A stretch of DNA of 64,000 nt from positions 16,554,001 to 16,618,000 of the forward strand of contig NW_025963813.1 in the NCBI RefSeq assembly GCF_023055435.1, read 5' to 3'. How positions within the stretch are numbered: the first letter of the stretch is position 1; the number at the start of each line of letters is the position of its first letter. This DNA comes from Haliotis rufescens. Its lineage: Eukaryota. The notes beneath the pieces are model-generated. The model was not told the DNA's origin. It ran no database searches and saw only the letters and a list, made by a program, of their open reading frames with translations. The translations under genes were made by a program, and so were the position numbers. This document shows positions 6,402-62,600 of this stretch, in pieces.

Positions 6402-6455
<54 letters not shown>

Positions 6456-25039: not shown

Positions 25040-28000
25040 ATGGCTGTCTCTCTGTATCTGCCTGTTAGTATCGCCCTCGTGGTTTTGACTGTCGCTGTCG
25101 GTTACACATGTGAGTCTGTCCTGTTTCTTCTCTGATTTTATGTTGTATTTAATGAAAAGAATTTGAACAATTTCACTGATAATGAATCGCGATTGAATGT
25201 ACGGCTCCGATGACTTACATAGTCAATCATTCAGTTCACTTTAGATATATTTCCCCATCAGTGAATCGTACACTTTACCGCAGATATATCTTCCTTTTAT
25301 TTCAGATGTATCGCTTAATCATTCCATCAACTTTGGATCATGAAAATAAAAAATTAAATGAGACAATCCCCCCCCCCCCCACACACACACACACACACCC
25401 TCAGCCTCATATTTTTATACAAAATGGCTGTGGCTGTGGTTGTGGTTGTGGTTGTGGCTATGGTTATGGCTATGGCTATGACTATGGCTGTGGCTGTGGT
25501 ATTGGCTGTGGTTATGTCTATGGTTGTGGTCACGGACATGGTTATGGCTATGGTTATGGCTGTGGTTGTGGTTGTGGCTATGGTTATGGCTATGACTATG
25601 GCTGTGGCTGTGGTATTGGCTTATTGGCTGTAGTTATGTCTATGGTTGTGGTCACGGATATGGTTATGGCTGTGGTTGTGGCTATGACTATGGCTGTGGC
25701 TGTGGTTGTGGCTATGACTATGGCTGTGGCTGTGGTTATGACTATGGTTGTGGTCACGGCTATAGTTATGGCTGTGGTTGTGGCTATGACTATGGCTGTG
25801 GCTGTGGTTATGTTTATGGTTGTGGTCACGGATATGGTTATGGCTGTGGTTGTGGCTATGACTATGGCTGTGGCTGTGGCTGTGGTTATTTTTATGGTTG
25901 TGGTCACGGATATGGTTATGGCTGTGGTTGTGGCTATGACTATGGCTGTGGCTGTGGTTGTGGCTATGACTATGGCTGTGGCTGTGGTTATTTTTATGGT
26001 TGTGGTCACGGATATGGTTATGGCTGTGGCTGTGTTTATGGCTGTGGCATTGGCTGTGGTTATGTTTATGGTTGTGGTCACGGATATGGTTATGGCTATG
26101 GTTGTGACTATGGCTATGGTTATGCCTGTGGTTGTGGCTGTTATTGTGGCTATGGTGAGGGTTAAGGTTCTCCCCTCTTTTTAGTGAATGTTACTTGTAC
26201 CGACCACGACGGCAAACCTATTGTTTTGATTCAGCCTGTAACTTTTCCTTTTCTTTTTCAAGCTTCCTTAACTTGCTACCAGTGCGCCGATTCAGGGGGA
26301 GGAGACGTGGATTGCGGGAATACCTCTGTCCTTCTGAACCTTCCCAAGTCGGAGAAGGTAGTGGAAGATGAGAATGAACCTGAGGAAGATGTACGGATAA
26401 ACAAGTATCATAAAAACTGCACTCCTTTCATGCAACACATGTGCATGATTGAAACGCACATGTCACAGGGTAAGACTTAATGTGAACGTGACTATACCAA
26501 CGTACTCTAAACCAATAACGGGATCAGAGAAAATTGATCTGAGTTCAAAACGTGCCCTTGCTTAGTAGGTGAGTTTGGTTTAACGCAACTATAAACAATA
26601 TGTCAGTTATATCATGCTGTGAAAGCTTGATGTTGGAGGAAAGCCTGAATGTGTCTGGACAGCGAGTTGCGGCGCCGCCCGTGAAGATCCGGGTCTTTAG
26701 CAACCCATACATGTCGTGAGAGGCGACTTACGGGATCGGGTTGTCAGGCGCGCTTCGTTGTCATGTAGACATATCCTGACTGCGTAGATAGAGGTTATCA
26801 CGCGAGTGTGTTTGGGGATAGTAAATTTCCTGCATTAGGAATAAACATTGTATTAAGCGAGCCTTGGCGAGCTAGATACATAGTGTTTATTCCTACAGGA
26901 TATTTACCATCCCAAAACACACAAGCGTGATAACCTTTTTATCATATAATGTCATTCTTTAATTCTGTGCTTGAAAATCGCTTTCCCTCTCTCACAAACA
27001 TGACCGAAACATTGCCAGTTTCCTGGAATGTGCGCATTAATATTTATTACGTCACAGGGTAAGTGATGTGTCTGTCAGACAGTGACAGTAGCCAATATAG
27101 TTCCAACTGAAATCTGTTTCTTATACAGTGGCGAAGCAACATATACGCAAAACAACAATTGTTTTACTTGCCTTTCGCGGCAATCCATTGGTCTGTCCGC
27201 TAAAGTAACTGCCCTTTGTCAAAGGGAAGCTACTCTAACCCTAGTCTATGAGACGTCACGGCCACGGCCAGACGTTGTTGACTGTCTGTCCTGTCATAAC
27301 GTTAAGAAGTGCAGTCAGATGTATACACAACGACAAAACGAAACATACATATTTCGGCCAAATCCAACTATTTTAATTTGTGGAAAAGGTTTCAGGTCGT
27401 AGAGGTCCACAAGCACAAATATGGCTACTGATCCCGCTTGGCTAGGCCTAGTGCCTAGCGCAAAAATGTTTCGAAATTTATATTTCCAAAGTTGCCAAAA
27501 CCTATAACATACCTCAGCTTCGTCACAGTTAGACACTGATTTTCAGTATATTAGATTTTTTATAATGATAGCAATTATCCCTGTAGTTTAGCCAGATTCC
27601 CGATGGTAAATTCTGACTCGATCGCCGAATGACAAGGACGACGCCATGTTTGTTAATAAACACTAAAAGTAGTCCCAACTTGACCTTTGATATTTGCATC
27701 TCTATCCGCATATGACCCCAATGGATATCGTTTTTATCCGTTGGCTTTATCCTGCCGAGAAACCTACCCATTACATGATAAATCGTGATATCAGTCACTG
27801 GATTATCTGGTCCAGACTCGATAATTTACAGACCGTCGTCATATAGCTGGAATATTGCGGCGTTGAACAACAAATAAACAAAGACTTCCAGCGCCTACTG
27901 AAACAGTCGAATCAGACCAAAAACATTGGCCCTAACTTACATTGATGTATGGTTATCTAATAATGCATATTCTCAAGAATAAAGTTTAGTTGTTATTCCA

Positions 28001-29660
28001 GAGAAGCCTCTATGAAAAGGACAGATTACGAATGTGTGTTTGTTTATTTGTTTGTTGTTTAACGCCGCACTCAGCAATATTCCAGTAATAAAAAGGCGGT
28101 TTGCAATTAATCGAGTCTGGACCAGATCATCCAATGATTGGCATCGTTCTACGCAAGTGGGATACGGTGACATGCAACCAACAGAGTCACCGAATCAGAC
28201 CACACCATCTACTTAGGATGCCGGGGACCTATTTTCTTCCACGGAATTCCCGAGGGTCTGAAGTGATAGATAACCGATGCATTTTTGTGCGATAGAGTTA
28301 AAAAATATATATATACCAACTTCAAAGCAGCTTCGTGTTTCCCGTCGTCTGACTTCTGAAATAACCGAATCAGACTACAATCATTTTGGTCATGAGCCTG
28401 AACTCTAGATGTATAATTATGTAATAATGAATAGTCATAATTAATTACTGAAGGCACGTGAATCCAAGCTGCCAAAGTCGCAACAATTCTTGTGTACCTT
28501 AGGCGTGCCAGAATTTTTTGATCATGTTTGTTTGTTGTAAAAAAATCGAGTCTGGACCAGACAATCCTGTGATTGACATCAAGCATCGTCCAACGCATTT
28601 GGGATATGATGATATGCAACCAAGTCAGCAAGCTTCACCATCCGATCCCATCAGTCGCCTCTGACAAGCATAGAAGACCAACTGAAGACCAATTCTAATG
28701 GGTTTATACCGGTCTGAATATGGCTTATGGTTGGTCAGGGGGCACGGGTGGCCCAGTCGTCTAAGGCGCCGCAATTCGCTGTGCAGAGTTCCTTCCGTTG
28801 GGCACACCAGAAACATATGATTGTGGGTTCGAATCCCGGTTGCCCCGATTATGTTTCTAGGTTTGTAAGCACCATACCTGTGCTCGTGGGTTTCACCGAA
28901 GTGGTAAACGTCCGAGACCTGCATCACTTCGGGCTTTCCTCCCACATTAAGCTGACACGCCGTGATATAACTGAAATACTGTTAAAAGCGGCGTTAAACC
29001 CAACTCACTCACTATGGTTTGTCAGCACCAACCCATGCTTCCACGTTTCACCAGAGTGTTGAACCTCTAAGACCTGCATCATTCTGAGCTTACACTGGCT
29101 TTGAGCCGACATTATGTGGTAAATTGAAATATCGTTATCAGCGGAGTTACACCCAACTCACTCACTCTAAAACACATTTCCCGTCTTACCCTTGCAGGAT
29201 TCTGGTGTCCCCCGCCGTGATATTGCTGGAATATTGCTAAAAGCGGCGTAAAACCTCACTCACTCACTCACTCACTACCCTTGCAGGTAACGTCCGCAGC
29301 TACATCCGTGACTGCAGTGATGGGAAGACCTTCTCCTTCAAGGTGGACAAGTACCCTCTTCTGCAGCACCGTCCGCCCAACAACGAGACTACATGCACCT
29401 ACGATGTTCAGCCGAATATGCAAATCTGCATCACGCTATGCAACAGCGACCTCTGTAACGGTCCGCAGCCTCTGCCGAAAAAGGACGTCGTATGTCGGAA
29501 TACTACAGATTTTTATGGTCAAGTCGAGGTTACCTGCGGAGCCTCATCGTTACGTCATGGCATGATGGATGCTTCACTGAACACATTGTTGGATGTGTTG
29601 GGAACGAGATACCTGGTACCATTTCTCATCTACAGTTTGGCTGTTTCTCTTGTGATGTAA
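25040..29660 (+). CDS. Ly6/uPAR three-finger (quiver/sleepless-like) protein, predicted secreted and GPI-anchored, 216 aa
   Basis: Exons 25040-25109 (signal peptide MAVSLYLPVSIALVVLTVAVGYT), 26263-26469 (SLTCYQC...C...C...C) and 29287-29660 (YIRDCS...C...CITLCNSDLCN, then a hydrophobic tail). GT-AG introns, phases 1/1. Ten-Cys pattern from CYQC to CNxDxCN. Confidence 0.88.
25425..26155. repeat. Degenerate hexamer microsatellite (GGYTRT)n in Ly6 intron 1
   Basis: GGCTGT/GGTTGT/GGCTAT/GGTTAT units with higher-order repetition. Confidence 0.95.
26791..27785 (+). mobile_element. ~1-kb Crypton-like non-autonomous element with 5' palindrome, inserted into a family C short retroelement
   Basis: The host repeat breaks at 26790 (ctgcgtagat) and resumes at ~27786 (gtgatatcagtcactgg). 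The insert begins with palindrome 26792-26936 centred on GCGAGCCTTGGCGAGC and ends CATGATAAA. No TIRs. Confidence 0.6.
28739..29013 (+). mobile_element. tRNA-derived SINE family B (~280 bp)
   Basis: A box TGGCCCAGTCGTCTAAGG, long spacer, B box GGTTCGAATCCC, tail GCGGCGTTAAACCCAACTCACTC. Partial copies at 37560-37670(-), 45000-45130, 47460-47640(-), 50165-50290(-). Confidence 0.88.
29199..29275 (+). mobile_element. 5'-truncated SINE family A whose TSD duplicates a splice acceptor
   Basis: TSD TACCCTTGCAGG at 29187-29198 and 29276-29287. Confidence 0.9.
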
Positions 29661-33296: not shown

Positions 33297-33304
33297 TATA
33301 TAAG
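33297..33304 (+). promoter_or_regulatory. TATA box of the secreted repeat-protein gene
   Basis: TATATAAG about 30 nt upstream of an Inr-like TCAGT (~33330), followed by a short non-coding exon with a consensus donor. Confidence 0.6.
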
Positions 33305-33794
33305 AGCAGAGCGATGTTCTGTCTCCGTGTCAGTCCAAGCGGCTTCAGGTAACGACAAGAAGGTAAGTGTAGCGGGATCTATCAATCTATCTGTGAAAAC
33401 ATCGGGTGGAGCTCAACTTTATTTTGGTAGTGTACAATTAAGAAGTACTTTATGACTGTAAATATTAAGGCTCTTGGATATCCATTGCTTGTGCGGCGTC
33501 ATTAACTGAAACTGTACATAGTATATGTCGTTGCAATGGCCACTGAGCCCATTTTAGTCATCTCTTTAGACAGAAAAGATTGATTGGAGTCACTTCTAAC
33601 CCGGATCTCCACATGGTACCACATTATTGGCTTATATTCATTCAGTGTTATAAAAAAATTAGTCAATACTGATCGCATACGTATCCAATTACCTCATGTA
33701 CATATTGCATTAATCTTATTATTTGGCGCCTCTGAGCAAAGCAGTTATGCTTACTGATCAAAACTTTTAACTGCCAGTACTCGAGTCCTCCACG

Positions 33795-35693
33795 ATGAAG
33801 CTGTTCCTCTGTCTGGTCCTCCTGCCTGTGCTGGTCCTCGCCGCACCGTCCCTGAAGATGGAGCTCCTGGAGGAGCTGCTGAAGAGGCTGGAGAGGAGGC
33901 AGCTCGGGGACACGACACCTGTCACCGAGGACATGACACCTGTCACCAAGGACATGACACCTGTAAGCGAAGGTACAACGCCTCTCAGCGAGGGTACAAC
34001 CTCTCTGACCGAGATGGACACCTCTTCAGACGACCATACGGAATCGACAACTGCAGAAGAAATGGACACTTCACCATCGGTCACCTACGACATGACATCC
34101 GATACCATTCAAAGCGACATGACGACACCTTTATATGACATATCCTCTTCACCGACAACGCCTAACGACGCCAGGGATATGACAACTCCATCTGCTTCAG
34201 GTAGGTGATTCATATACGGCCAAATATATATTCTTGTCTTCATGTCATGTCAGAAGTGTTTCATCTCCCTATTAATTTCAAGACGAAGCTAAATCAATAC
34301 AGTTTTTCATTTCTAAATCGGTCTTTTCAGACATGGGACCAAGAGAATACATGAGGCAAGCTACAGAAGGCGTGTGTATGCTACTGGCTTTCGTGAAAGG
34401 ACAAGAGAGGCTTTTGGAAATGTTTGGCAATCATGGAGGTTCACCTATGATGGCTGGTCTCATGGGAGGATTACCGCCACAGTCCCGTGCAATTGGGGGG
34501 CTACCGAACATGATTGGTCCCATGGGAGATCTGCCTAAACAGTCCGGTTCTATGGGAGGTATGCGTAAACAGTCCGGTTCTATGGGAGGTATGCGTAAAC
34601 AGTTTGGTTCTATGGGAGGTATGCGTAAACAGTTTGGTTCTATGGAAGGGATGCGTAAACAGTCCGGTTCTATGGGAGGTATGCGTAAACAGCCCGGTTC
34701 TGTGGAAGGGTTACCTAAACGTCCCACTGAAGACTCTTTCCCCTGGGAGGAGGCTGAACAGAAGCTACAGGACCTCTGCGATCTCGTCAACAGCTACAGC
34801 TCCGAACCTCTGAAGCTGGCGCAGACCCTGGTTGAACAGATGGGAGGTCAGTATAAATTATATGATGATCTTATTATTGTGACACGACATCTACTCTGAC
34901 TTATCATTGAATGCACAGTACCTTAATATAACTGAATTTATTTATCTTGCATTACATTTGACCCCGTGGTCTAAGTCGACGTAGGATTATGATTTTTGGT
35001 TTATCAACACCATATCCGTGATCTTGGGTTCTATCAACCAGTAATCGTCAGCGATCTGTGTCACTTCAATACATAATATAACTGAAATACTATTCATTAG
35101 TATTAAACCCAACTCACCTCACTCACACACATTTTGTACACTCATATTTCTGCATTAGGGGGCACAGGTGGCCCAGTCGTCTGAGGCGCCGCGATTCGCT
35201 GTGCAGAGTTGCGTCCCTTGGACACGCCAGAAATCTATGATTTTGGAGTCAAAACCCGGTTCGCCCCGATTATGTTTCTAGGTTTGTCAGCACCCTACCC
35301 ATGCTCGTGGGTTTCACCGAAGTGGTAAACGTCTAAAACCTGCATCACTTCGGGCTTTCCTCCCACATTAAGCTGACACGCCGCGATATAACTGGAATAA
35401 TGTTAAAGCGGCGTTAACCTCATCTCACTCACTCAAATCGAGTCCGTTTTTACCAGTAAATGACTCATAATTTACACAGGTTTTAAATGGCAACTTAAAG
35501 CTAGATCTGCATGTGTCATTGACTCTTTATTGCATATATCAATGAATATTCATTCGTGTCTGGCGTACCGCTTATGATTAGCAAACTGAGGCTGAATTTA
35601 CGGTAAATGACGTTTCCCCTGACATCTGTTTCAAAACCCGCGTGACACAAATGTTAATGTGTTATTCGTTTTTTTTCAGCTCACAAAGGTTGA
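33795..35693 (+). CDS. Uncharacterised secreted low-complexity/repeat protein, 311 aa
   Basis: Coding exons 33795-34200, 34331-34846 and 35680-35693 (GT-AG, phases 1/1, ends AHKG then TGA TAG). Signal peptide MKLFLCLVLLPVLVLA and GC3-rich codon usage in the non-repeat parts. Upstream TATATAA at ~33297, non-coding exon donor AAG|GTAAGT at 33362, AATAAA at 35960. Confidence 0.85.
35158..35435 (+). mobile_element. SINE family B (intronic)
   Basis: Full-length match to 28739-29013. Confidence 0.88.
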
Positions 35694-36095
35694 TAGATTG
35701 TCTCTTGAGCCGACTCATTAACTCCTCCAGCCTCACCCAGACCGATGGACAACCCGCTCATTCACGAACAGTGTCGCTTCTGACGCCAGTCAGATCACCT
35801 GATCCTATGATACAAAACCATGTAACTATTGCAATGATAGTTGCTAAAAGGCATTATAAGTATTATATTCTAATCGAAGAGATTACTATTTTTATCATTA
35901 CATGAATTTCTTATTATCTTCACGTTGATCATAACCGATATTGTTCTATATTTAATACAAATAAACCACGATTGTTGTTTGTACTTGGGTCTTGTTTGTC
36001 TTCACTACTGCCATTACAATGCCAACATACCAATTGAGAAATGTGTCCAAGCGCTGATGATCTAACAATTCGGGGTCTTGTCATCAAGATTCAAG

Positions 36096-36260
36096 TGAGT
36101 GAGTGAGTATGGTTTTACGCCGCTTTTAGCAATAATCCAGCAATATCACGGCGGGGGACACCAGAAATGGGCTTCACACATTGTACACATGTAGGGAATC
36201 GAACCTGGGTTTTCGGCGTGACGAGCGAACGCTTTAACCACTAGGCTACCCGACCGCCCC
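36096..36260 (-). mobile_element. Full-length SINE family A with 15-bp TSD
   Basis: TSD TCATCAAGAT(T/A)CAAG at 36081-36095 and 36261-36275. Confidence 0.9.
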
Positions 36261-36329
36261 TCATCAAGATACAAGATACGCTTAATATATTTCACGTCGG
36301 TTTTCACAGGCAAATCATAACATTAGCTC

Positions 36330-37999: not shown

Positions 38000-39248
38000 A
38001 GCTTCTCTTGTTCCCCTGTTCATTGATCTCACATGGCTTCTCTCATTCCCCTGTTCACTGATCTCACATGGCTTCTCTTGTTCTCCTGTTCACTGATCTC
38101 ACATGGCTTCTCTTGTTCCCCTGTTCACTGTTCTCACATGGCTTCTCTTGTTCTCCTGTTCACTGATCTCACATGGCTTCTCTTGTTCCCCTGTTCACTG
38201 ATCTCACATGGCTTCTCTTGTTCCCCTGTTCTCACATGGCTTCTCTCATTCACCTGTTCACTGATCTCACCTGGCTTCTCTTGTTCTCCTGTTCACTGAT
38301 CTCACATGGCTTCTCTTGTTCTCCTGTTCACTGATCTCACATGGCTTCTCTTGTTCTCCTGTTCATTGCTCTCACATGGCTTCTCTTGTTCTCCTGTTCA
38401 CTGATCTCACATGGCTTCTCTCATTCAAGAGTTCATTGATCTCACATGGCTTCTCTTGTTCTCCTGTTCACTGATCTCACATGGCTTCCCTCATTCAACT
38501 GTTCATTGATCTCACATGGCTTCTCTTGTTCTCCTGTTCACTGATCTCACATGGCTTCTCTCATTCAACTGTTCATTGATCTCACATGGCTTCTCTTGTT
38601 CTCCTGTTCACTGATCTCACATGGCTTCTCTCCTTCAACTGTTCATTGATCTCACATGGCTTCTCTTGTTCTCCTGTTCACTGATCTCACATGGCTTCTC
38701 TTGTTCTCCTGTTCACTGATCTCACATGGCTTCTCTCATGCAACAGTTCACTGATCTCACATGGCTTCTCTCATTCAACTGTTCATTGATCTCACATCGC
38801 TTCTCTTGTTCTCCAGTTCACTGATCTCACATGGCTTCTCTCATTCACCTGTTCACTGATCTCACATGGCTTCTCTTATTATCCTGTTCATTGATCTCAC
38901 ATGGCGTCTCTTGTTCTCCAGTTCACTGATCTCACATGGCTTCTCTTGTTCTCCTGTTCACTGATCTCACATAGCTTCTCTTGTTCCCCTGTTCACTGAT
39001 CTCACATGGCTTCTCTTGTTCCCCTGTTCACTGATCTCACATGGCTTCTCTCATTCAACTGTTCATTGATCTCACATGGCTTCTCTTGTTCTCCAGTTCA
39101 CTGATCTCACATGGCTTCTCTCATTCACCTGTTCACTGATCTCACGTGGCTTCTCTTATTATCCTGTTCATTGATCTCACATGGCTTCTCTTGTTCTCCA
39201 GTTCACTGATCTCACATGGCTTCTCTCATTCACCTGTTCACTGATCTC
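38000..39248. repeat. 35-bp minisatellite, ~35 copies
   Basis: Unit CTGTTCACTGATCTCACATGGCTTCTCTTGTTCTC. Confidence 0.97.
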
Positions 39249-39972: not shown

Positions 39973-40688
39973 CGAGGGGTGTTCATTAAAGATTTTCCCT
40001 TAAACACTTAGGGTTATCATATTTGGTTGAAATTTCACATGTGTGATGATACACGTATCTATGGGTTATGTCTGAATTTGCAGCACCGAACTATTAATCT
40101 TACCACTTTTACAGGTGTTATGATCGAGTGGGGTGTGACAATGGAGCCAGTAGAATACCGAGCAGTGATTAGGTTTTTTATATTTGAAAGGTCGCACACC
40201 AAAAGAAACTTTCGAGGAAATGAAAGCAACTTATGGGGAAGATGCCCCATCATATGACGTTGTTAAACACTGGCATCGCCAGTTCAAGTGTGGTCGGACA
40301 TCTGTGGAAACAGCTGCCATTCCTGGTTGCCCCCATTCAGCCATTGACGAGGACACTATCCATCAAGTGGAGACCGCCATTTTGGCAGACCGACGTATTA
40401 CTGTTCGCCAGTTAGCACAAGATGTCAAGATCAGTGTAGGGTCTGTGGAAAAAATCATCCATGACAATTTGAACATGCATAAGGTGTCTGCACGATGGAT
40501 TCCCAGGTTGCTCACACCTTTCCAAAAGCAGGAACGAGTCAATTGCTCAAAGGATCTTTTGGACATGAGCAAAAAACAACAGGCAAACTTTGTTGACAGA
40601 CTTATCACACAGGATGAAACATGGGTCCATCACTATGATCCTGAGACTAAAGTTCAGTCGATGCAATGGAAGCATGTGGAGTCACCCC

Positions 40689-40722
<34 letters not shown>

Positions 40723-41289
40723 AAAAAAAGGCACGTGTCCAACCCTCTGCAGGCAAGGTCATGCTCACAGTGTTTTGGGACCAGCACGGAGTAGTGATGA
40801 TGGATTTCTTGGCAAAGGGTACCACAATTACAGGAGCGTATTATGCTTCACTGCCGCGGAAATTGCGGGACGCTATCAAGCTTAAGAGGCGTGGCATGCT
40901 GACCAAGGGTGTCTGTCTCCTGCAAGACAATGCTCCAGTACACAACTCTCATGTTGCCCAGACAGAAGCGCGGTCCTGTGGCTATGAAATCCTTCCACAT
41001 CCTCCTTACTCTCCTGACCTTGCACCATCTGACTTCCACCTCTTTCCAACCATGAAGTCATTTTTGAAGGGAAAACGTTTCACAGATGATGAAACACTGA
41101 TTTCTGAAGTCAAGTCATTGTTTGAGACGCAAAATGAGGGCTTTTACAAGCGAGGTCTCCATAGTTGCATAAAACGATGGGAGAAGTGTGTAACTCTTGG
41201 TGGTTCCTATGTGGGGAAAGACTAATACCTATGCCAAGTTTCTTTCCACTGGGTCCATCGGAAGTGGGTCAGGGGAAATCTTTAATGAA
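39973..41289 (+). mobile_element. Mariner (DD34D) transposon, full length, irritans/Bytmar-like termini
   Basis: TA then CGAGGGGTGTTCATTAAAGATTTTCCCT; right TIR AGGGGAAATCTTTAATGAA runs into the N gap. Transposase 40141-41225 has WIPRLL, DETW, QDNAP and HPPYSPDLAPSDFHLF, interrupted by two homopolymer frameshifts (T run ~40174, C/A run ~40690-40729). Confidence 0.95.
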
Positions 41290-43010: not shown

Positions 43011-43635
43011 AGGCTTCACTGTGGATCGGGGTAATATAGGGAGGCTTCACTGTGGATCGGGGTAATATAGGGAGGCTTCACTGTGGATCGGGGTAATATA
43101 GGGAGGCTTCACTGTGGATTGGGGTAATATAGGGAGGGTTCACTGTGAATCAGGGTAATATAGGGAGGGTTCACTGTGGATCGGGGGTAATATAGGGAGG
43201 GTTCACTGTGAATCAGGGTAATATAGGAAGGCTTCACTGTAGATCGGGGTAATATAGGAAGGCTTCACTGTGGATCGGGGTAATATAGGAAGGCTTCACT
43301 GTGGATCGGGGTAATATAGGAAGGCTTCACTGTAGATCGGGGTAATATAGGAAAGCTTCACTGTGGATCGGGGTAATATAGGAAAGCTTCACTGTGGATC
43401 GGGGTAATATAGGAAGGCTTCACTGTGGATCGGGGTAATATAGGAAGGCTTCACTGGGGATCGGGGTAATATAGGAAGGCTTCACTGTGGATCGGGGTAA
43501 TATAGGGAGGCTTCACTGGATTATATTGGGGTTATATGGGGAGGGTTCACTGTGGATCGGGGTAATATAGGAAGGCTTCACTGTGAATCAGGGTAATATA
43601 GGAAGGCTTCACTGTGGATCGGGGTAATATAGGAA
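43011..43635. repeat. 31-bp minisatellite, right block (~20 copies)
   Basis: Same unit as 41549-41818. Confidence 0.95.
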
Positions 43636-45820
43636 GTAGATGGCACCTACAGCAGAGTTCCAACTGGTGCTGGATATTGGATTTGTGGAGTTGCTGGAAT
43701 CACAAGAAGTCTGGGTCATCAATGGAGAATAACTTCTTCACTAGAGTGTGCAACACTTCATCGTTCCATCTGCTGGCAGAAGCCGGAACTGCGGCGTGAC
43801 TGCTGCTGTCTGGGCTGAGTGAGAAAAGTGTTGGTTGTAAGCGATGTGATTAGTACTGTCTCAATGGTTGCATAAGGACCTCCGTCCCCTGTCAGCTTTT
43901 AGTGTTGGTCTGTAACCACGATAAGTCTTCTCATTCAGTTAATCATATCGGTAGGTTCATTTTCAAGCTCATGAGCAGGAGACATTTTGGTCTCTTTGAC
44001 TTATTCTGTCAACCACTTGTTCTGTATGCACAGGGAACAGGAAAGTTGATTTATGGTCAGATATCCTGACATTTATTTACTGAGATATGATAAAGTAACC
44101 TAGGAGCTCCTCTGTAATCTGTCCATGTACAGGAATGCCTAATATGGGCATGGGGCGACCTAACTGGAGGTAAGACCCGTTTCATTGGGTATAAATCTTG
44201 ATTATCAATAAGATCGTTTTGACTTGCTGCCGACAATATATTTAAGCAAATGATATGAGAGGTGGAATCTCATTGGCCAATGGAAGGGATATTACTGGTA
44301 AAAGACTTTTATAGTGAGTTAACTCCCTTGCTTCAGGAAGATGTGTTGAAGGATGCTGCAAGAAGTCTTGTGAAACCGGACCACACAGGGACTGACCATT
44401 TGATATTCTGTGTGCAGACTAGATACTTTTTAAGCTTCAGCTGTAAAACCAGATATATTTTTTCAATGAAAACTCTGTGCCTAAATCTTTTTTTTTAAAA
44501 ACATCTTGGAACTATGTATTTTTTGTGGCAGACAATTTTCTGTTTTGACAATCTGAGCATAATTTATTGTTTGAAGCCTTTTTCCAGACAATATACACTT
44601 TTTTTTCTAAAGGCCCAGGCCATCCCCAGAATACCAAGTAATATGACCCTCATGAGGTTTACTCATGTTTAAATTTCTCCTCAGAGAATTTGTGATAATT
44701 GAATTGGGCCACACTTTGTTTTAAATCTGAATTTGACTCTTTTTTTTATCCCACCAATAATAAGTGATAGCATTTTGCACCAAAAATAAATTTTCTAAAC
44801 AAGGACCCATTATTAATTATTTGCAGTGGATCATCTGGCCACTTTGCTACACTAAATGTATGTTTTGTCTGAAATTGTTTCAGAATGGGCTAATGCCCTG
44901 TCGTAGGTCCTGCAGTGACTTTGCATTAATCAGTTCTTATGAAAACACACTGGCAGTGGATGTTTCATATTTGATAAATTATGTTTCTTTGGGGCACCCC
45001 TATTGTTTCCAGATCAGTCAGCAACATACCTGTGTTCATGGGTATGCATCTAAGACCTGCATCACTTCGGGCTTTACTCCCACATTAAGCTGACAGGTTC
45101 TGATGTAACTGATTTATGTGTTAAGAGCAGCCTCTCAGGTATTATGTTTGTAATCTATCACAGAGCAGACAGGACCCGTGAAGATCCGGGATAGAATAGG
45201 TCTTCAGCAACCCATGCTTGCGGTAAAAGCTGACTCTGCTTGTCGCAAGAGGCGACTGACGGGATCAGGTGGTCAGACTCGGTTGATGCATGTCATCAAT
45301 GCTCATGATGTCAATCACAGGATTGTCTGGTCCAGACTCGACATTTGGGCAATGTGTGTGGCGACTTCAGAACTAGTAAAACCTCTGCAGTTAGATCAGT
45401 GGTGCCAAATGTGGAACAGGTATCGGAAGTATAGCAAGATGTATTTGGTATGTATCTTTTGAAGGTTCAATGTTTTGCTCCTTGCACAATCGAATTTGAA
45501 GTTATTCCTGCTTGAAATTAAATGTCAACAGTTACAATGTTGGGACATGCCATTTTGATCATCATTCTCTACCTAAATATTGCTTTTCAATGATGTGAGT
45601 GCTATCCTCCATGAATATGACCTTGTATTAACATATCTGGATTAAAGTTGAATATTTTCTCACTTGTTTTGGTATATCAACAAATCATGTGTGTCCCCCG
45701 CCGTGACATTGCTAAAATCAGTGTAAAACCATACTGGGTGGGCATTTCCAGCAGTTGCGTCAATCACTGGATTGTCTGTCATAGCTGGAATATTGCTGAG
45801 TTTGACATCACAGATGTTGC

Positions 45821-51857: not shown

Positions 51858-53509
51858 TTCAAACTTCAACCGAAAAAAATATCATTTATTGGTGAAATTA
51901 TCACGCACCTAAATCCTTTTCACTGACCGACTGACACTATCTTGTCATGCACAGAGCATTAAATTCCCATTTCCTGATAAGACGACCTGCACGTTGATAC
52001 AGATAGGTATAAGTATGTCAAACCTGATACAGTCTGACCATCAATGATCAATATCTTTATAAAGACACACTACTTCAAACTTCAACCGAAAAAATATATC
52101 ATTTATTGGTGAAATTATCACGCACCTAAATCCTTTTCACTGACCGACTGACACTATCTTGTCATGAAAAGCGCATTACATTTGCATGTCCTGATAGTGT
52201 GACCTGCACCACGTTGCACGTATCTGTGCACGTTGATATAGATAGGTATAAGTATGTCAAACCTGATACAGTCTGACCATCAATGATCAATATCTTTATA
52301 AAGACACACTACTTCAAACTTCAACCGACAAAAATATATCATTTATTGGTGAAATTATCACGCACCTAAATCCTTTTCACTGACCGACTGACACTATCTT
52401 GTCATGAAAAGCGCATTACATTTGCATGTCCTGATAGTGTGACCTGCACCACGTTGCACGTATCTGTGCACGTTGATATAGATAGGTATAAGTATGTCAA
52501 ACCTGATACAGTCTGACCATCAATGATCAATATCTTTTTAAAGACACACTACTTCAAACTTCAACCGAAAAAATATATCATTTATTGGTGAAATTATCAC
52601 GCACCTAAATCCTTTTCACTGACCGACTGACACTATCTTGTCATGCACAGCGCATTACATTTGCATGTCCTGATAGTGTGACCTGCACCACGTTGCACGT
52701 ATCTGTGCACGTTGATATAGATAGGTATAAGTATGTCAAACCTGATACAGTCTGACCATCAATGATCAATATCTTTATAAAGACACACTACTTCAAACTT
52801 CAACCGAAAAAATATATCATTTATTGGTGAAATTATCACGCACCTAAATCCTTTTCACTGACCGACTGACACTATCTTGTCATGCACAGCGCATTACATT
52901 TGCATGTCCTGATAGTGTGACCTGCACCACGTTGCACGTATCTGTGCACGTTGATATAGATAGGTATAAGTATGTCAAACCTGATACAGTCTGACCATCA
53001 ATGATCAATATCTTTATAAAGACACACTACTTCAAACTTCAACCGAAAAAATATATCATTTATTGGTGAAATTATCACGCACCTAAATCCTTTTCACTGA
53101 CCGACTGACACTATCTTGTCATGCACAGCGCATTACATTTGCATGTCCTGATAGTGTGACCTGCACCACGTTGCACGTATCTGTGCACGTTGATATAGAT
53201 AGGTATAAGTATGTCAAACCTGATACAGTCTGACCATCAATGATCAATATCTTTATAAAGACACACTACTTCAAACTTCAACCGACAAAAATATATCATT
53301 TATTGGTGAAATTATCACGCACCTAAATCCTTTTCACTGACCGACTGACACTATCTTGTCATGCACAGCGCATTACATTTGCATGTCCTGATAGTGTGAC
53401 CTGCACCACGTTGCACGTATCTGTGCACGTTGATATAGATAGGTATAAGTATGTCAAACCTGATACAGTCTGACCATCAATGATCAATATCTTTATAAAG
53501 ACACACTAC
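51858..53509. repeat. ~239-bp tandem repeat x7 directly upstream of the arylsulfatase start codon
   Basis: Units start at about 51858, 52074, 52313, 52553, 52792, 53031 and 53270. They are near-identical; the first is shorter. Confidence 0.97.
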
Positions 53510-53622: not shown

Positions 53623-56600
53623 ATGGCGTGTCGCGGAATAGCAGTATTGGCTGTGTTGCTGTGGGCTACAACGAGCACCTCTTCTTCATCTCCACAGCGC
53701 CCCAACATTGTGTTCATCGTAGCTGACGACCTAGGTAAGCTGGACTGATGATGATTAATGTCATGCTGAATTAATACGATACTCTCTCGCAGCTCCTGAA
53801 CCATAATCATTTGCCCTTCTGCCCAGCCCTTACTGTAATCATATCACTGATTGTACCCTCCAAGTTATATATTTTCAGAGACTAAGCGTTAGTCTAGAAA
53901 TCTGACAATGTGTGCACGCTTGTCGAAGATCCATCGATCCTATGTTCACATTATTTGCTGTGATAAACCTCATTAAGACTGCAATACATCTTGCATTTCA
54001 ATTATTTATTGGAGCTTTTATCAACGTTTGGATGTACAATTTCACATTGAAGGCTCACCATGTGATGCATGGCGAAACGCCATCTCGATTAAACAACGTA
54101 ACAGCTGTTATGGCGATCACATGTTATTGACGTCTTGTCCGCGAGATTTTAGAGATGTTTCCTGAAGTATATCAATCCTGCGGACACGTTTCCTTATTTG
54201 TTTATTGTTTAACGCCTTTCTCAGCAATATGCCAGCTGTATAACGCCCCACCGGTGGTACCCGTTGCACACACATGCAAAGGCAAGTCAAACGTTCAGCT
54301 TAAAAACAACACGGGAACGTTTGGTACCTGTCAAAATAGGGAATTGCATCGGACATAGTTCTTGTCACTGGTTCGTGCAATTGTGAAATGTCCCCTACAT
54401 GATTACCAAAAAAACGTTTTTAAAGCTTTGCTTTTGATGTGAAGAATGTGTTTAAATTTATATTTTTGACGCTGAACATGAGAATGAAACCAAATATTAT
54501 GGATGGCCTTTGCCACAGGTCAGCCCTTAAGCTCTTTCAACAGGTCCGTCCTATCCGCATATGCATTACAGAGTGTAACAGGAAACTGGGGTTGTTATGT
54601 GTAAGTTTGAACTGGGGACTGTTTACTGAGTGAGTGAGTATGTTTTAAGCAGCGTATAGCAATATTCCAGCAATGTCACGACGAGGGACACCAGAAATGG
54701 GCTTCACACATTGTACCCGTGTCGGGAATCGAACCCGGGTCTTCGACGTGACGAGAGAACGCTTTAACCACTAGGTTACCCGACCGCCCCTGTGGTTTGT
54801 TTAGAGGTGTGTTGCGTGTTGGTCGTAGTAATTAATATCGTATTCAATTTTGTTAGGTATCCTCCATATTGTCAGCGTGTTGTATTTCAGGCTGGAATGA
54901 CGTTGGCTTTAGGAACCCTGACATCCTCTCCCCAAACATAGACAAGCTGGCCAGAGAAGGGGTCATCCTCAACAGTTCCTACGTCCAGCCTGTCTGTAGT
55001 CCGTATGTTGCTTTATGGCATCGATGATGTCATTGTTAAAATATCCTCCATGATTACTGTTATAATTTTTTTCTATAACGGTATAAGGTCCGGGGTTCAT
55101 ACCAAAAGACGTTAAAAGATGGTACTTGTTGTTACCCTGTCTGGCCCTCGGCATTAAGGGGCTAAAACAAGGACTGGTCGGCTCGGAGTCAGTATGCTGT
55201 GTGTGAGTGGGGTATTCATGTTAAACTGCGACATGGTATCTCAGTGAGCTAGCACTATAAGGCGGCATCAGTACGGACTATTTCAAGCAGCCACACACAC
55301 ACGCACACACACACATGCACGGCGCTATATAAGTGCAATAATCTTGGACGCGACGTTAAACACAATTTCAACTCACCTCGCCTTTTCTATAGGGCATCGA
55401 CGATATCATGGTAAAAATATACTCCATGATTACTGTTATAATTATTCTTTATAACTCTATTAAATTGGGAGCAGTGGGGGCAATAGCAATAGAGTTAGTG
55501 AGTGAGTTAGTGAATGGGTGGTTGGGTAATTGCGTGAGTGAAAACTCTAACGAAGAATGAGTGTAGAAAAAGCACAAACAAAAAGCTTGCCAAACTCTAT
55601 TGACAGTTATTTTGGGCTACCCTGTCTTGAACTGGCTGTCATTATATCATTGACACGCCTTGAAACTAAGTTGGGTCAAATCTTGGATTTGAACCCACAA
55701 TCATAGATTTATGGCAAGTCTAAAGGAGGCAACTTTAGTAGCAAAAGCAGAAGCAGTAGCAGCAGGAGTAGCAGTAGTAGTGACAGTAGTAGTAACAGTC
55801 GTAGTAGTAACAGTCGTAGTAGTAGTAGTAGTAACAGTAGTTGTAGTAGTAACAGTAGTAGTAACAGTAGTTGTAGTAGTAACAGTAGTACTAACAGTAG
55901 TTGTAGTAGTAACAGTAGTAGTAACAGTAGTTGTAGTAGTAACAGTAGTACTAACAGTAGTTGTAGTAGTAACAGTAGTACTAACAGTAGTTGTAGTAGT
56001 AACAGTAGTACTAACAGTAGTTGTAGTAGTAACAGTAGTACTAACAGTAGTTGTAGTAGTAACAGTAGTAGTAACAGTAGGAGTAACAGTAGTAGTAACA
56101 GTAGTAGTAACAGTAGCAGTAACAGTAGTAGTAACAGTAGCAGTGACAGTAGTGACAGTAGTTGTAGTAGTAACAGTAGTAGTAACAGTAGTTGTAGTAG
56201 TAACAGTAGTACTAACAGTAGTTGTAGTAGTAACAGTAGTACTAACAGTAGTTGTAGTAGTAACAGTAGTAGTAACAGTAGTAGTAACAGTAGTAGTAAC
56301 AGTAGGAGTAACAGTAGTAGTAACAGTAGTAGTAACAGTAGTAGTAACAGTAGCAGTAACAGTAGTTGTAGTAGTAACTGTAGTAGTAACAGTACTTGTA
56401 GTAGTAACAGTAGTAGTAACAGTAGTAGTAACAGTAGTAGTAACAGTAGGAGTAACAGTAGTAGTAACAGTAGTAGTAACAGTAGTAGTAACAGTAGCAG
56501 TAACAGTAGCAGTGACAGTAGTGACAGTAGTTGTAGTAGTAACAGTAGTAGTAACAGTAGTTGTAGTAGTAACAGTAGTAGTAATAGTAGTAGTAACAGT

Positions 56601-59600
56601 AGTAGTAACAGTAGTTGTAGTAGTAACTGTAGTAGTAACAGTACTTGTAGTAGNNNNNNNNNNNNNNNNNNNNNNNNNNNNNNNNNNNNNNNNNNNNNNN
56701 NNNNNNNNNNNNNNNNNNNNNNNNNNNNNNNNNNNNNNNNNNNNNNNNNNNNNNNNNNNNNNNNNNNNNNNNNNNNNNNNNNNNNNNNNNNNNNNAGTAT
56801 TAGCAACAGTAGTAGTAACAGTAGTAGTGGTAGTATTAGTGGCAGTAGTAGAGGTAGTAGTAGTGATGGTAGTAGTAGTAGCAGCAGTAGTAGTATTAGT
56901 AGCAGCAGCAACAGTAGTAGCAGTACAAGTAGCATCAGTATTAGTAGCGGTAGTGGTAGTGGTAGCAGCAGCGGTAGTCGCAGCAGTACAAGGTCTTCAG
57001 CAACCCATGCTTGCCCTGAAAGGCGACTATGCATGTCGTAAGAGACGACTAACGGGATCGGGTGGTCAGGCTCGCTGACTTGGTTGATGCATGTCATCGA
57101 TCCCAATTGCGTGTATCGATGCTCATGATATCAATCGCTGGATTGTCTGGTCCTGACTCGACTATATACAGACCGCCGTCATATAGCTGGAATATTGCTG
57201 AGTGCGGCGTTAAACCCCAAAAAACAAACAAAAAGTAGCATCTGGAGTTGCAGTAGCGCTAGTAGTAATACATGTAGCAGTAGTAATAGCAACAGCAGCA
57301 CCAGTAGTTGGTAATTTGTTTCTGAATGTGTTACTCCTCGTGTTTCAGATCTCGCAATGCTTTCATGACAGGTGTATATCCTTTCAAAGTGGGTCTTCAG
57401 GTAGGAAGTTTCACTTAGCTTGTGGTTACACGCATTTGAATTACCCAAAAGCGTAAGAAAATATAAAATTTGGACAAGAAGGATGCTTACAACGAATAAA
57501 TAAGAGACACAAACACACAAGGTTAATGTGTCTTGTTTGCGCGCTCGATGACCTGTCTGAATACTTTGCCACATTCTTGATTGAATGATTCGTGTTGAAC
57601 TCCCTCTTGCTTGAATGATTCGTGTTGAACTCCCTCTTGCTTGAATTATTCGTGTTGAACTCCCTCTTGCTTGAATGATTAGTGTTGAACTCCCTCTTGC
57701 TTGAATAATTCGTGTTGATCTCCCTCTTGCTTGAATGATTAGTGTTGAACTCCCTCTTACTTGAATAATTCGTGTTGAACTCACTCTTGCTTGAATGATT
57801 CGTGTTGAACTCCCTCTTGCTTGAATGATTCGTGTTGAACTCCCTCTTGCTTGAATAATTAGTGTTGATCTCCCTCTTACTTGAATAATTCGTGTTGATC
57901 TCCCTCTTACTTGAATGATTCGTGTTGAACTCCCTCTTGCTTGAATGATTCGTGTTGAACTCCCTCTTGTTTGAATGATTCGTGTTGAACTCCCTCTTGC
58001 TTGAATAATTAGTGTTCATCTCCCTCTTACTTGAATAATTCGTGTTGAACTCCCTCTTACTTGAATGATTCGTGTTGAACTCCCTCTTGCTTGAATGATT
58101 CGTGTTGAACTCCCTCTTGTTTGAATGATTCGTGTTGAACTCCCTCTTACTTGAATGATTCGTGTTGATCTCCCTCTTGCTTGAATAATTCGTGTTGATC
58201 TCCCTCTTGCTTGAATGATTCCTGTTGAACTCCCTCTTGCTTGAATGATTCGTGTTGAACTCCCTCTTACTTGAATAATTCGTGTTGATCTCCCTCTTGC
58301 TTGAATAATTCGTGTTGATCTCCCTCTTGCTTGAATAATTCGTGTTGAACTCCCTCTTACTTGAATGATTCGTGTTGAACTCCCTCTTGCTTGAATGATT
58401 CGTGTTGAACTCCCTCTTGCTTGAATTATTCGTGTTGAACTCCCTCTTACTTGAATAATTCGTGTTGAACTCCCTCTTACTTGAATGATTCGTGTTGAAC
58501 TCCCTCTTGCTTGAATGATTCGTGTTGAACTCCCTCTTGCTTGAATGATTCGTGTTGAACTCCCTCTTACTTGAATAATTCGTGTTGATCTCCCTCTTGC
58601 TTGAATAATTCGTGTTGAACTCCCTCTTGCTTGAATGATTCGTGTTGAACTCCCTCTTACTTGAATGATTCGTGTTGAACTCGCTCTTGCTTGAATGATT
58701 CGTGTTGAACTCCCTCTTACTTGAATGATTCGTGTTGAACTCGCTCTTGCTTGAATGATTCGTGTTGAACTCCCTCTTGTTTGAATAATTCGTGTTGAAC
58801 TCCCTCTTCCTTGAATGATTCGTGTTGAACTCCCTCTTGCTTGAATGATTCGTGTTGATCTCCCTCTTGCTTTAATAATTCGTGTTGAACTCCCTCTTGC
58901 TTGAATGATTCGTGTTGAATCCGCACATTTGTTTGTTGCAGCACATAGTCATCTGGCAGTGGCAAAACGTCTGTTCCCCTTTGAACCACACCTTTCTGCC
59001 TCAAGTGTTGAAAGGCCTGGGCTATGCAACTCACATCGTGGGCAAGTTAGTGTTGGCGCATAAGTTACCTTACTGAAACACTTGTAAAGATGTTCGCGCA
59101 ATTGTAATGATTATCATCATTAATCCTTTCAGTCTTTTACCAGAGTTTCGTAATTCTACAATTATGTGACATATTGTTGCGTTTTAGTAAAGTAACACCT
59201 TGATCGACAAAAAGCTATGAATTTCTGTACTGCTTATCTATTTGGCATTTTAATGGTGTTCAACGGTTTTTTAACGAAACGCAATTTTCGGTTCTTGTTT
59301 CCAAGATGGCATCTCGGCTTCTGCAACTGGGACTGCACGCCCACCTTCCGAGGCTTCGATAGCTTCTTCGGCTACTACAACTCTCGCGAGGACTACTACA
59401 GCCATAAACTGTGTAAGTACAACATAGATTTAGTTACTACTCGATTTTAAAGTGAAGGTCAAACATCATTCGCCTTTTCTATTGGACGAGAGGCGCGTCA
59501 CGTGACCCTAGAGGTGAAGGACACATGTTGACGTTCAAATGTCTTTTTGTCGAGACGGGTTTTCATAATGACGTAAACATCGCCACTTCCAAATTCCTGG

Positions 59601-62600
59601 GAAACCCCTTGGGATTCCCTGCATGAAAACAAATTGCTGTTGTTTAAGTACTCACACATATACATGATTGAAAGATTGTTGTGTTATTGATTGTCATTTA
59701 TGATTGTTGGTTTGTGATAAGTTATGACAGACATATCTCAACGGAAAGATGATGAAGATAATATAAGCCACCCTTCATGTTTATCAACCTTCAGCTCTGT
59801 AGTCTGAATACTTCATTGTGGTGTTAGGAATGGTCTCTGAGGTCGGTGGGATACCCGAAGACCCGGGTTCGATGGGAACAATGTGTGAAGGCCATTTCTG
59901 GTGTCCCCCACCGTGATATTGCTTGAATATTCCTGAAAGCGGCGTGAAAACCATACTCACTCACGCTGGTGTCCCCACCCCCACCCCGGACGTGATATTG
60001 CTGGAATATTGCCGAAAGCGGCATGAATGAACCAGTGCAATCACAACAATGTGACAGTCAATTTTATGCCCCCCCTCCTCTTGTAATTTTAATGAGCATC
60101 CAACGTCTGTGAAACATCTCATGTGTTCACTATTACTACATTTATGCAAAACATGTACTTGTGTGAGTGTCGACGAAGTTGTCTGGACTTTGCCGCTGAC
60201 CCCGGTGCTTGTATTACAGCAGGATATTTGGACTTCCGGGATGACCAGAAAGCTGCGTGGCAGTACGAAGGCCAGTATTCTGCGGTATGTGTGTGTGACG
60301 TCACTCAAGTGATGACATGAAATATACAACGAATACAATGTTTATATGACGAAATAATTGTTCATTGTTGTCATACACAGGACTACAGTTTAATGTACTT
60401 TTGTTCAATATCTCAAAGTTAGTGAGAGCTCATACATCTTTGGAAATCATATGATATATTATTTAATGATACTCCATACAAAACGGTATTATGTTAATAC
60501 ACACTTTCGTACAAAGTTCGACTTTGGTTTCCAGAACCTGTACTCCCAGAAGATTGTCAGTGTTATTGAAAAACATGACAAGAGCCGACCATTGTTCCTC
60601 TATCTGCCGTTCCAGTCTGTGCACTCTCCAACACAGGTACTGTGTCACCCACAGGTACACTGACACAGACACACAGGTACACTGACACAGACACACAGGT
60701 ACACTGACATAGACACACAGGTACACTGACATAGACACACAGGTACACTGACACAGACACACAGGTACACTGACACAGACACACAGGTACACTGACACAG
60801 ACACACAGGTACACTGACACAGACACACAGGTACACTGACACACACACACAGGTACACTGACACAGACACTCAGGTACGCTGACACAGACACACATGTAC
60901 ACTGACACAGACACACAGGTACACTGACACAGACACACAGGTACACTGACACACACACACACAGGTACACTGACATAGACACACAGGTACACTGACACAG
61001 ACACACACACAGGTACACTGACACAGACACACAGGTACACTGACACACACACACAGGTATACTGACACGGACACACAGGTACACTGACATAGACACACAT
61101 GTACACTGACACACACACACACACAGGTACACTGACACAGACACACAGGTACACTGACACAGAAACACAGGTACACTGACACACACACACAGGTACACTG
61201 ACACGGACACGGACACACAGGTAGACTGACACAGACACACAGGTACACTGACACACACACACAGGTACACTGACACACACACACAGGTACACTGACACGG
61301 ACACACAGGTACACTGACACAGACACACAGGTACACTGACACACACACACACAGGTACACTGACACAGACACACAGGTACACAGACAGACACACAGGTAC
61401 ACTGACACAGACACACAGGTACACTGACATAGACACACATGTACACTGACACACACGCACACAGGTACAATGACACAGACACACAGGTACACAGACAGAC
61501 ACACAGGTACTGAAACATCAGACACCCTTCTACTCTGTAAGTGACTGTATTTTGAATGTCACATTCACAAATCAAGCTAAAGATTTCGTGTGTATCCCCT
61601 CCACGTTCTTCGTGCGTCCTTGACAGATTACTTCTGATCAAGTATCCAGTGATCCACGGTAACTGCTGAGGAGCTGTTTTGACGAAACTTGCATATTTAA
61701 ATTCTAATCTCAAGGCACTCTATCTGGTATAAGGCCACACGAGACGGACGTGTAAGCAGTAGAGCCCAGGAAGGCACATAACACAGCTCTGAACCAACAG
61801 ACTTCCCCGAAGGGACCCCATCACTTGGCATCAAGTCTGAAGACATTCTGATACAAGATGGACATGGGTGCTATGTGTGTCACTATTATTATCTGTTTGA
61901 TAACAGCAGGAATGGTTAACACCATCCCACAAAGCGTTAATTGTGATTCTCTTCCCATGTTTTACAGGCTCCGGAACGCTATGTTAATCTGTACAAGAAT
62001 GTTAACAACGAAGGAAGGCGGGTTTTCAGCGGTACGTATCATGTTCCGTAAATGCTCTATCATTTCAATGATTGATCACTGCAATGGTCTGCGAGGCATT
62101 GGTATGGCGTTTAGGGAAGATATGACATATTTAGACTACTTGTTCAATTAGTTGTATGACATGACGTCCCCAAAATATGTTTAACATACAGCAATGGAAG
62201 TTCACTATTTTAATGACGTTCCAGGCAATTTCAATTAAAGAGACGTCTTGTCCACTGAACTCTTTATATGTTATTGTTGTATCCATCAGGAATGGTCTCT
62301 GCTCTCGATGAAGCGATTGGCAACGTAACCGCTGCTCTCAAACAAACCGGTCTCTATGACAACACACTGTTTCTCTTGACGACGGATGTGAGTTGCATAT
62401 TTCTGTAGTGTCTTATACACTTCTCTTACACTTGTTTCGGCAATTAGTACCGCGAACCCTCGTTAGTCCAGACTCCGTTATGACGGAAACTCAACGTTCC
62501 AGACGATTCACATCAAGAACGTCAAACATTCTACAATGGTGAGGTGAGGTGAAATGGGTTTGACGTCGCGTGCAAGATTATTGCACTTATGTAGCGACGT

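Follow-up and report, generated by a model that had tools for sequence, protein, structure and literature searches.

The reading frames between 33795 and 35693 of this Haliotis rufescens DNA belong to a real spliced gene, and the conserved part of its family is, by alignment of the homologs, a pair of cysteine-bearing blocks that flank a repetitive Met/Gly/RK array. We tentatively read the product, at a probability of roughly 0.4, as a secreted proprotein whose two predicted helical blocks are likely joined by a Cys151-Cys285 disulfide and whose linker is dispensable and possibly excised. The array itself, although it is what draws attention to the locus, is a young repeat and probably incidental. 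Secretion as an intact structural protein is nearly as likely as this proprotein reading, and two others, a source of octapeptide signals and a shell-matrix protein, are weaker than both.

Within the window (the whole stretch analysed, 64,000 nt), joining 33795-34200, 34331-34846 and 35680-35693 yields a 936-nt coding sequence for 311 amino acids plus a stop codon, with GT/AG intron ends. The transcription unit comprises:

33297..33303, + strand: TATATAA, a TATA-like box of putative function seen in the sequence; the likely transcript start follows about 30 nt downstream
33331..33362, + strand: 5′ non-coding exon with an approximate start (415-nt joint in X13; loose contig end)
33778..34200, + strand: exon 2, the first coding exon, ATG at 33795 (sequence; contigs)
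34331..34846, + strand: exon 3 (sequence; contigs)
35680..35983, + strand: last exon, with the ..AHKG codons, the stop at 35691-35693, the 3′ UTR and AATAAA at 35960 (833-nt joint in three of four runs; X1 contig end at 35983)

Splicing was read from assembled contigs of seven of the 24 listed runs, whose RNA nature is the tool's guess; six of these seven distinct runs (X1, X5, X7, X9, X13 and X14; five coded studies) have the 130-nt intron spliced out, and the X15 contig continues through it uninterrupted, as DNA would. The 833-nt intron is removed in three of four runs, and a 415-nt 5′ intron (GT..AG) is joined in one of four, X13, with a separate loose contig end matching the 5′ exon. The absence of a spliced transcript, which the initial annotation had named as grounds for abandoning its proposal, is contradicted by these contigs, in which introns are skipped in runs presumed to be RNA, and the C-terminus predicted to read ...HKG was recovered as ...GAHKG on the joined coding sequence. 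Contig depth at the gene spread widely between runs and was not taken as a measure of expression. Very high-copy SINE-like elements lie at 35140-35460 in the last intron and at 36094-36270 just downstream, and attract most of the aligned contigs.

Further features surround the gene in the window. A three-exon gene on the + strand at 25040-29660 (about 25040-25109, 26263-26469 and about 29287-29660, the third acceptor being approximate) encodes a product that has a signal peptide and a hydrophobic tail, with a C-x-x-C start and the motif C-N-x-D-L-C-N; we take it to resemble a Ly6/uPAR (quiver-like) GPI-anchored protein, and two of its exons scanned separately gave no Pfam match. A repeat that reads as Gly/Tyr/Cys and is open on both strands (25424-26165) sits inside the first intron of that gene, a position that makes a non-coding satellite more probable than a keratin-associated-like gene. 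At 40169-41225 (+) lies what remains of a transposase, presumably Mariner/Tc1-like by its motifs; it runs through two frames that overlap and is interrupted by a poly-C run near 40685-40720. A smaller similar piece lies at 6053-6460. Tandem arrays at 38001-39248, 43011-43636 and 51988-53509 (periods of 35, 31 and 239 bp) and at 55752-56988, 57575-58919 and 60650-61510 (periods of 9-30, 30 and 22 bp) create spurious long ORFs.

Along the 311-aa protein, we distinguish the following parts:

33795..33842, + strand: predicted signal peptide, aa 1-16, cleavage point putative (KD peak 3.1; 12-16 of 16 residues identical in four full-length homologs)
33843..33899, + strand: aa 17-35, an amphipathic pro-segment that closes with ERR↓Q (ERRQ shared by all four full-length homologs; 11-19 of 19 residues identical; hydrophobic moment 0.45)
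33900..34200, + strand: aa 36-136, an acidic arm rich in Thr/Ser/Asp that contains 7-aa (21-bp) repeats and a conserved P-x-Y-D motif (charge; TRF; PxYD in five of five sequences)
34333..34431, + strand: conserved block 1, which contains Cys151 (34375-34377) and is predicted to be helical (homolog identity; helix from low-confidence homolog models)
34420..34539, + strand: four degenerate 30-bp units of the Gly/Met/Pro linker (repeat-unit comparison)
34540..34719, + strand: 30-bp minisatellite of five ...MRK↓Q units and one ...LPK unit, aa 206-265 (TRF, 6.3 copies, 91%)
34738..34846, + strand: conserved block 2 (FPW...), which contains Cys285 (34777-34779) and for which two helices are predicted (homolog identity)

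Much of this layout had been proposed before any search, and the description proved accurate overall, but it missed the pair of conserved Cys-bearing blocks flanking the array. Residues 3-17 form the sole strongly hydrophobic stretch (KD 3.1, next best 1.12), and this peak, conserved in the homologs, agrees with the signal peptide predicted there. The acidic Thr/Asp region is likewise as described (residues 36-136, net charge -19, 25% Thr, 21-bp repeats present), and so is the count of two mature cysteines, since Cys occurs only at positions 6, within the signal, 151 and 285. Division into an acidic and a basic half holds for the arm but is overstated for the remainder, where basic character is limited to the 60-aa array (+10); the C-terminal block carries -6 and the mature protein as a whole -13. 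Besides five RK↓Q sites the protein has a KR located after the array as stated, but this pair reads KR↓P, and KR followed by Pro is normally not cleaved by convertases. The number of 21-bp arm repeats (33908-34013) is not constant among runs, the difference being one unit for X7 and X15 and a net two fewer for X13, and it differs in the H. cracherodii homolog too.

The protein had been called an orphan; word-based searches and an HMM scan of 1.84 billion representatives, however, recovered six homologs, namely one from H. cracherodii (P0005), two each from H. rubra and H. asinina (P0001-P0004) and one unnamed 93-aa protein (P0006), with a further homolog search yielding no others. The named ones are RefSeq entries labelled "uncharacterized protein": XP_071109430.1 (H. 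cracherodii), XP_046577947.1 and XP_046577951.1 (H. rubra), and XP_067659399.1 and XP_067659432.1 (H. asinina). P0005 matches at 85% over exon 3, which places the present DNA in an abalone close to H. cracherodii; P0006 is distant (E 1.1e-10 in the 1.84-billion library) and aligns as two separate BLAST blocks of 30% and 41% identity, keeping both conserved blocks. Residues identical to those of the H. rubra and H. asinina proteins lie densest in the blocks (block 1, 26-29 of 33; block 2, 28-31 of 38, and 17 of 38 for P0006) and are sparser in the linker (12-23 of 100) and the acidic arm (34-43 of 101); the signal shares 12-13 of 16 and the pro-segment 11-12 of 19, P0001 being without the N-terminal part. 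Both block cysteines are present in all seven sequences, and ERRQ in all five that are full-length, which fits the earlier suggestion of an apparently real processing site at the end of the pro-segment. Linker length between the blocks ranges from 15 aa in P0006 through 48-62 aa in the four paralogs and 82 aa in P0005 to 105 aa here. Family members thus have in common the signal, ERR↓Q, the acidic arm and both Cys blocks, except that XP_046577951.1 consists of the core only. They differ in that H. rubra and H. asinina have two copies per species, with a KR↓L site and without the RK array, and the H. cracherodii member carries three RK units and is modelled with another C-terminus.

The present genome holds a single copy: repeat-free queries match this locus alone, and tblastn and HMMs found no tandem paralog in the window plus 100 kb on each side. 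Exon 3 has 41 matches in its own genome, of which the 40 non-self ones cover mainly the repeat region at 24-41% identity; we treat these as compositional, because the one that was translated proved to be an unrelated Gly/Met repeat. By the sequences recovered, the family appears unannotated and so far confined to Haliotis plus one distant homolog, and because the libraries are thin on eukaryotes its real range may be wider. Three family motifs and two LOC identifiers were not found in open-access main texts (supplements, which could contain the protein, lie outside that search), nor were the family motifs in the accessible supplements of PMC9022041 and PMC7333891.

No described family claims the protein, as had been anticipated for this secreted precursor: the two main coding exons have no Pfam match, three of the six homologs give only sub-threshold Pfam noise (E 0.12-0.71), PDB sequences yield 0 matches at E<=10 and the homologs are uncharacterized. 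AlphaFold2 models of P0001 and P0006 are of low confidence (mean pLDDT 49 and 58) and place helices on both blocks with mostly disorder between. With these low-confidence models, Foldseek returned nothing at E<=0.001 and VIA-align a best Z of 5.1 without an outlier, neither of which implies fold novelty; the best ESM Atlas score was 0.76 for P0001, with no usable match for P0006. Three known groups were considered and rejected. The insulin/relaxin superfamily needs a six-Cys B/A pattern and a Pfam match, and a saposin-like fold, which the Cys spacing presumably resembles, expects six Cys and a Pfam or fold match, whereas the present protein has two mature Cys and no Pfam match. Haliotid growth-associated peptide (HGAP), given in the available part of PMC11108583 as a 96-aa protein with nine conserved Cys, differs from a 311-aa protein with two mature Cys.

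In the two-chain proprotein that we favour, the two helical blocks are likely the working part. The signal peptide would be removed first and a convertase would then release the pro-helix by cutting at ERR↓Q, so that the chain begins with a Gln that is likely pyroglutamate, with the acidic Thr arm retained as a disordered, probably modified spacer. The two blocks would fold together, likely via the Cys151-Cys285 disulfide, the usually basic linker looping out, and the linker would probably be cleaved at its basic pairs, which are KR↓L or KR↓T in the relatives and RK↓Q in the present protein, to give a proinsulin-like product of two chains, possibly amidated at the terminal Gly. QxGSMGGM pieces, if any are released, would be left over from the linker and not selected signals. 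The product would most likely be an exocrine gland secretion; as an analogy only, SP precursors of the Sepia oviduct gland are described in the accessible text of PMC3484142 as gland precursors cut into disulfide-bearing peptides.

A basic pair not followed by Pro is found in the linker of all seven sequences (KR↓L in four, KR↓T in one, RK↓Q in two), a regularity to be read against the 10-36% of shuffled linkers that contain a cuttable pair by chance and against the close relationship of four of the five KR carriers. The KR↓L site of the relatives is lost here and in P0005, so linker excision in the present protein would depend on RK. Three of the seven sequences end in G-stop or GR-stop and four are without terminal G or GR, although the missing ends of P0001 and P0005 may be ends of gene models. 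A third mature Cys occurs in the arm of both P0002 and P0003, and pairing of the two block cysteines is therefore not forced. Gene structure, splicing, the pattern of conservation and the origin of the array are shown by the sequences and contigs; the two-chain, disulfide-linked product is best called putative, together with its secretion, cleavage, modification and bond.

Nearly as probable is an intact structural secretion, of mucus, of the pedal or hypobranchial gland, or of periostracum or cuticle, in which loss of the pro-helix is the sole processing step, oligomers form through the helical blocks, and the acidic arm and the basic Gly/Met/Pro linker act as low-complexity spacers setting charge and gel properties. 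Such a role is consistent with the composition that the family maintains: the net charge of the arm stays at -14 to -19 in four homologs, and the linker is basic in six of seven sequences and Gly/Met/Pro-rich in all seven. The lack of a basic pair between the arm and block 1 also suits an uncut protein, and would make chain 1 of a two-chain product large for a hormone. Low-complexity repeats of about 10 aa grown by slippage are, according to the available text of Kocot et al. (PMC4897951), common in lineage-restricted molluscan secreted proteins. A spacer that sets gel properties is harder to reconcile with the sevenfold range of linker length and with the linker net charge of 0 in P0004, and the family motifs were absent from two accessible supplement files of a limpet mucus proteome, a weak test in a distant taxon.

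The array, from which the release of pQ-[S/F]GSM[G/E]GM octapeptides by a new multi-copy precursor had been proposed, has a history that bears directly on that proposal. Five RK units occur here, three in P0005 and 0 in P0001-P0004 and P0006. Of the nine 10-aa repeats first counted, the five RK↓Q units and the 30-bp period stand, but TRF counts 6.3 copies, and nine or ten are reached only by including degenerate units, which match at 12-23 of 30 nt compared with 3-9 of 30 off the array. All five RK sites use the same four codons, with no synonymous differences; the flanking units end in LPK, one base at the P/R codon separates LPK from RK units, and P0002 of H. asinina has a single LPK-type unit matching the repeat (score reached by 3 of 500 shuffles), the only significant match to the ancestral unit among five array-less homologs. 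For these reasons the five sites trace to one P-to-R change in an ancestral LPK unit that was later amplified, not to five independent signals, and the array as a whole is a 30-bp repeat that has expanded recently within a linker much shorter in the relatives. One X14 contig across the array is 69 nt shorter, which we read as two units fewer plus a 9-nt indel.

With the RK array absent in five of six homologs, an outcome that the initial annotation had itself set against its octapeptides, and with a single mutation behind all the sites, that reading is weak, and we consider it unlikely. In its favour, five RK↓Q sites do lie in a secreted precursor, three units are kept in H. cracherodii, and cleavage at RK is feasible, since mammalian PC1/3 and PC2 are reported in the accessible part of PMC9070308 to cleave after Z-Arg-Lys-AMC. 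The predicted peptides would, however, be without amidation; repeat peptides in the H. discus hannai precursor list of PMC6523705 are delimited by KR, KK or G-K/R, none by RK being seen by eye in the part available, and the protein is not among the ganglion precursors or MAP1-8 of that list, which is largely homology-built and was compared outside its peptide tables. Just as doubtful is a more elaborate scenario in which these abalone proteins are helical hormones or pheromones of two chains and one disulfide, made by excising a hypervariable linker, and a single clade has recently acquired a tandem array of RK-flanked pyroglutamyl octapeptides. Under it, one point mutation and slippage would have supplied the array, a multi-copy peptide precursor being born inside a C-peptide-like linker, a version to which we give equally little credence.

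Least probable is the shell-matrix (biomineral) protein with an acidic Ca-binding arm that had also been suggested, which resembles shell low-complexity proteins in the composition of its Asp/Thr arm and Met/Gly repeats (PMC4897951, in the text available) but whose five family motifs gave 0 matches in the accessible H. laevigata nacre and prism proteome supplement files (27 of 27, peptide tables included, one numbered file lying outside the scope and long cells being partial; PMC6003135), a comparison presuming that this species' ortholog is in the proteome database with its motifs kept.

The locus is, then, a real gene whose family is undescribed and of a familiar kind; on the proprotein reading, abalone, which have many lineage-restricted proteins, gain a further secreted family that is well conserved and uncharacterised. 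The locus also illustrates how a single base change, together with slippage of a repeat, can produce the look of a neuropeptide precursor. Were the linker truly excised, a farmed mollusc would be making a two-chain secreted product not yet described; were the octapeptides active, the array would be a dated case of a peptide array arising de novo.

Set beside known systems, the protein shares with molluscan multi-copy neuropeptide precursors (pedal peptide, buccalin and FMRFamide types) tandem short units between basic pairs and an N-terminal signal peptide, the latter predicted from its hydropathy peak and conservation. It differs from them in having RK instead of KR, units without an amidation Gly and an array that is not conserved, and in being absent from the available part of the ganglion list (PMC6523705). 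Where such precursors would conserve units and basic flanks above spacers, the RK array is found in two of seven sequences and the flanking blocks are conserved instead. With the lineage-restricted molluscan repeat proteins, as far as the accessible text of PMC4897951 describes them, it has in common a signal peptide, taxon restriction and slippage repeats of about 10 aa; unlike them it has a strongly conserved non-repetitive core, and nothing found here points to a shell or mantle location. Compared with two-chain disulfide-linked precursors of the proinsulin/relaxin logic, it has no sequence or Pfam match, two Cys and not six, and a long acidic arm, and its cleavage is proposed. The califins of Aplysia are an example of such a two-chain, disulfide-linked precursor. 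What the protein shares with this logic is predicted secretion and Cys segments on either side of a variable linker with basic pairs, a conserved Cys flanking a linker of 15-105 aa on both sides in all seven sequences.
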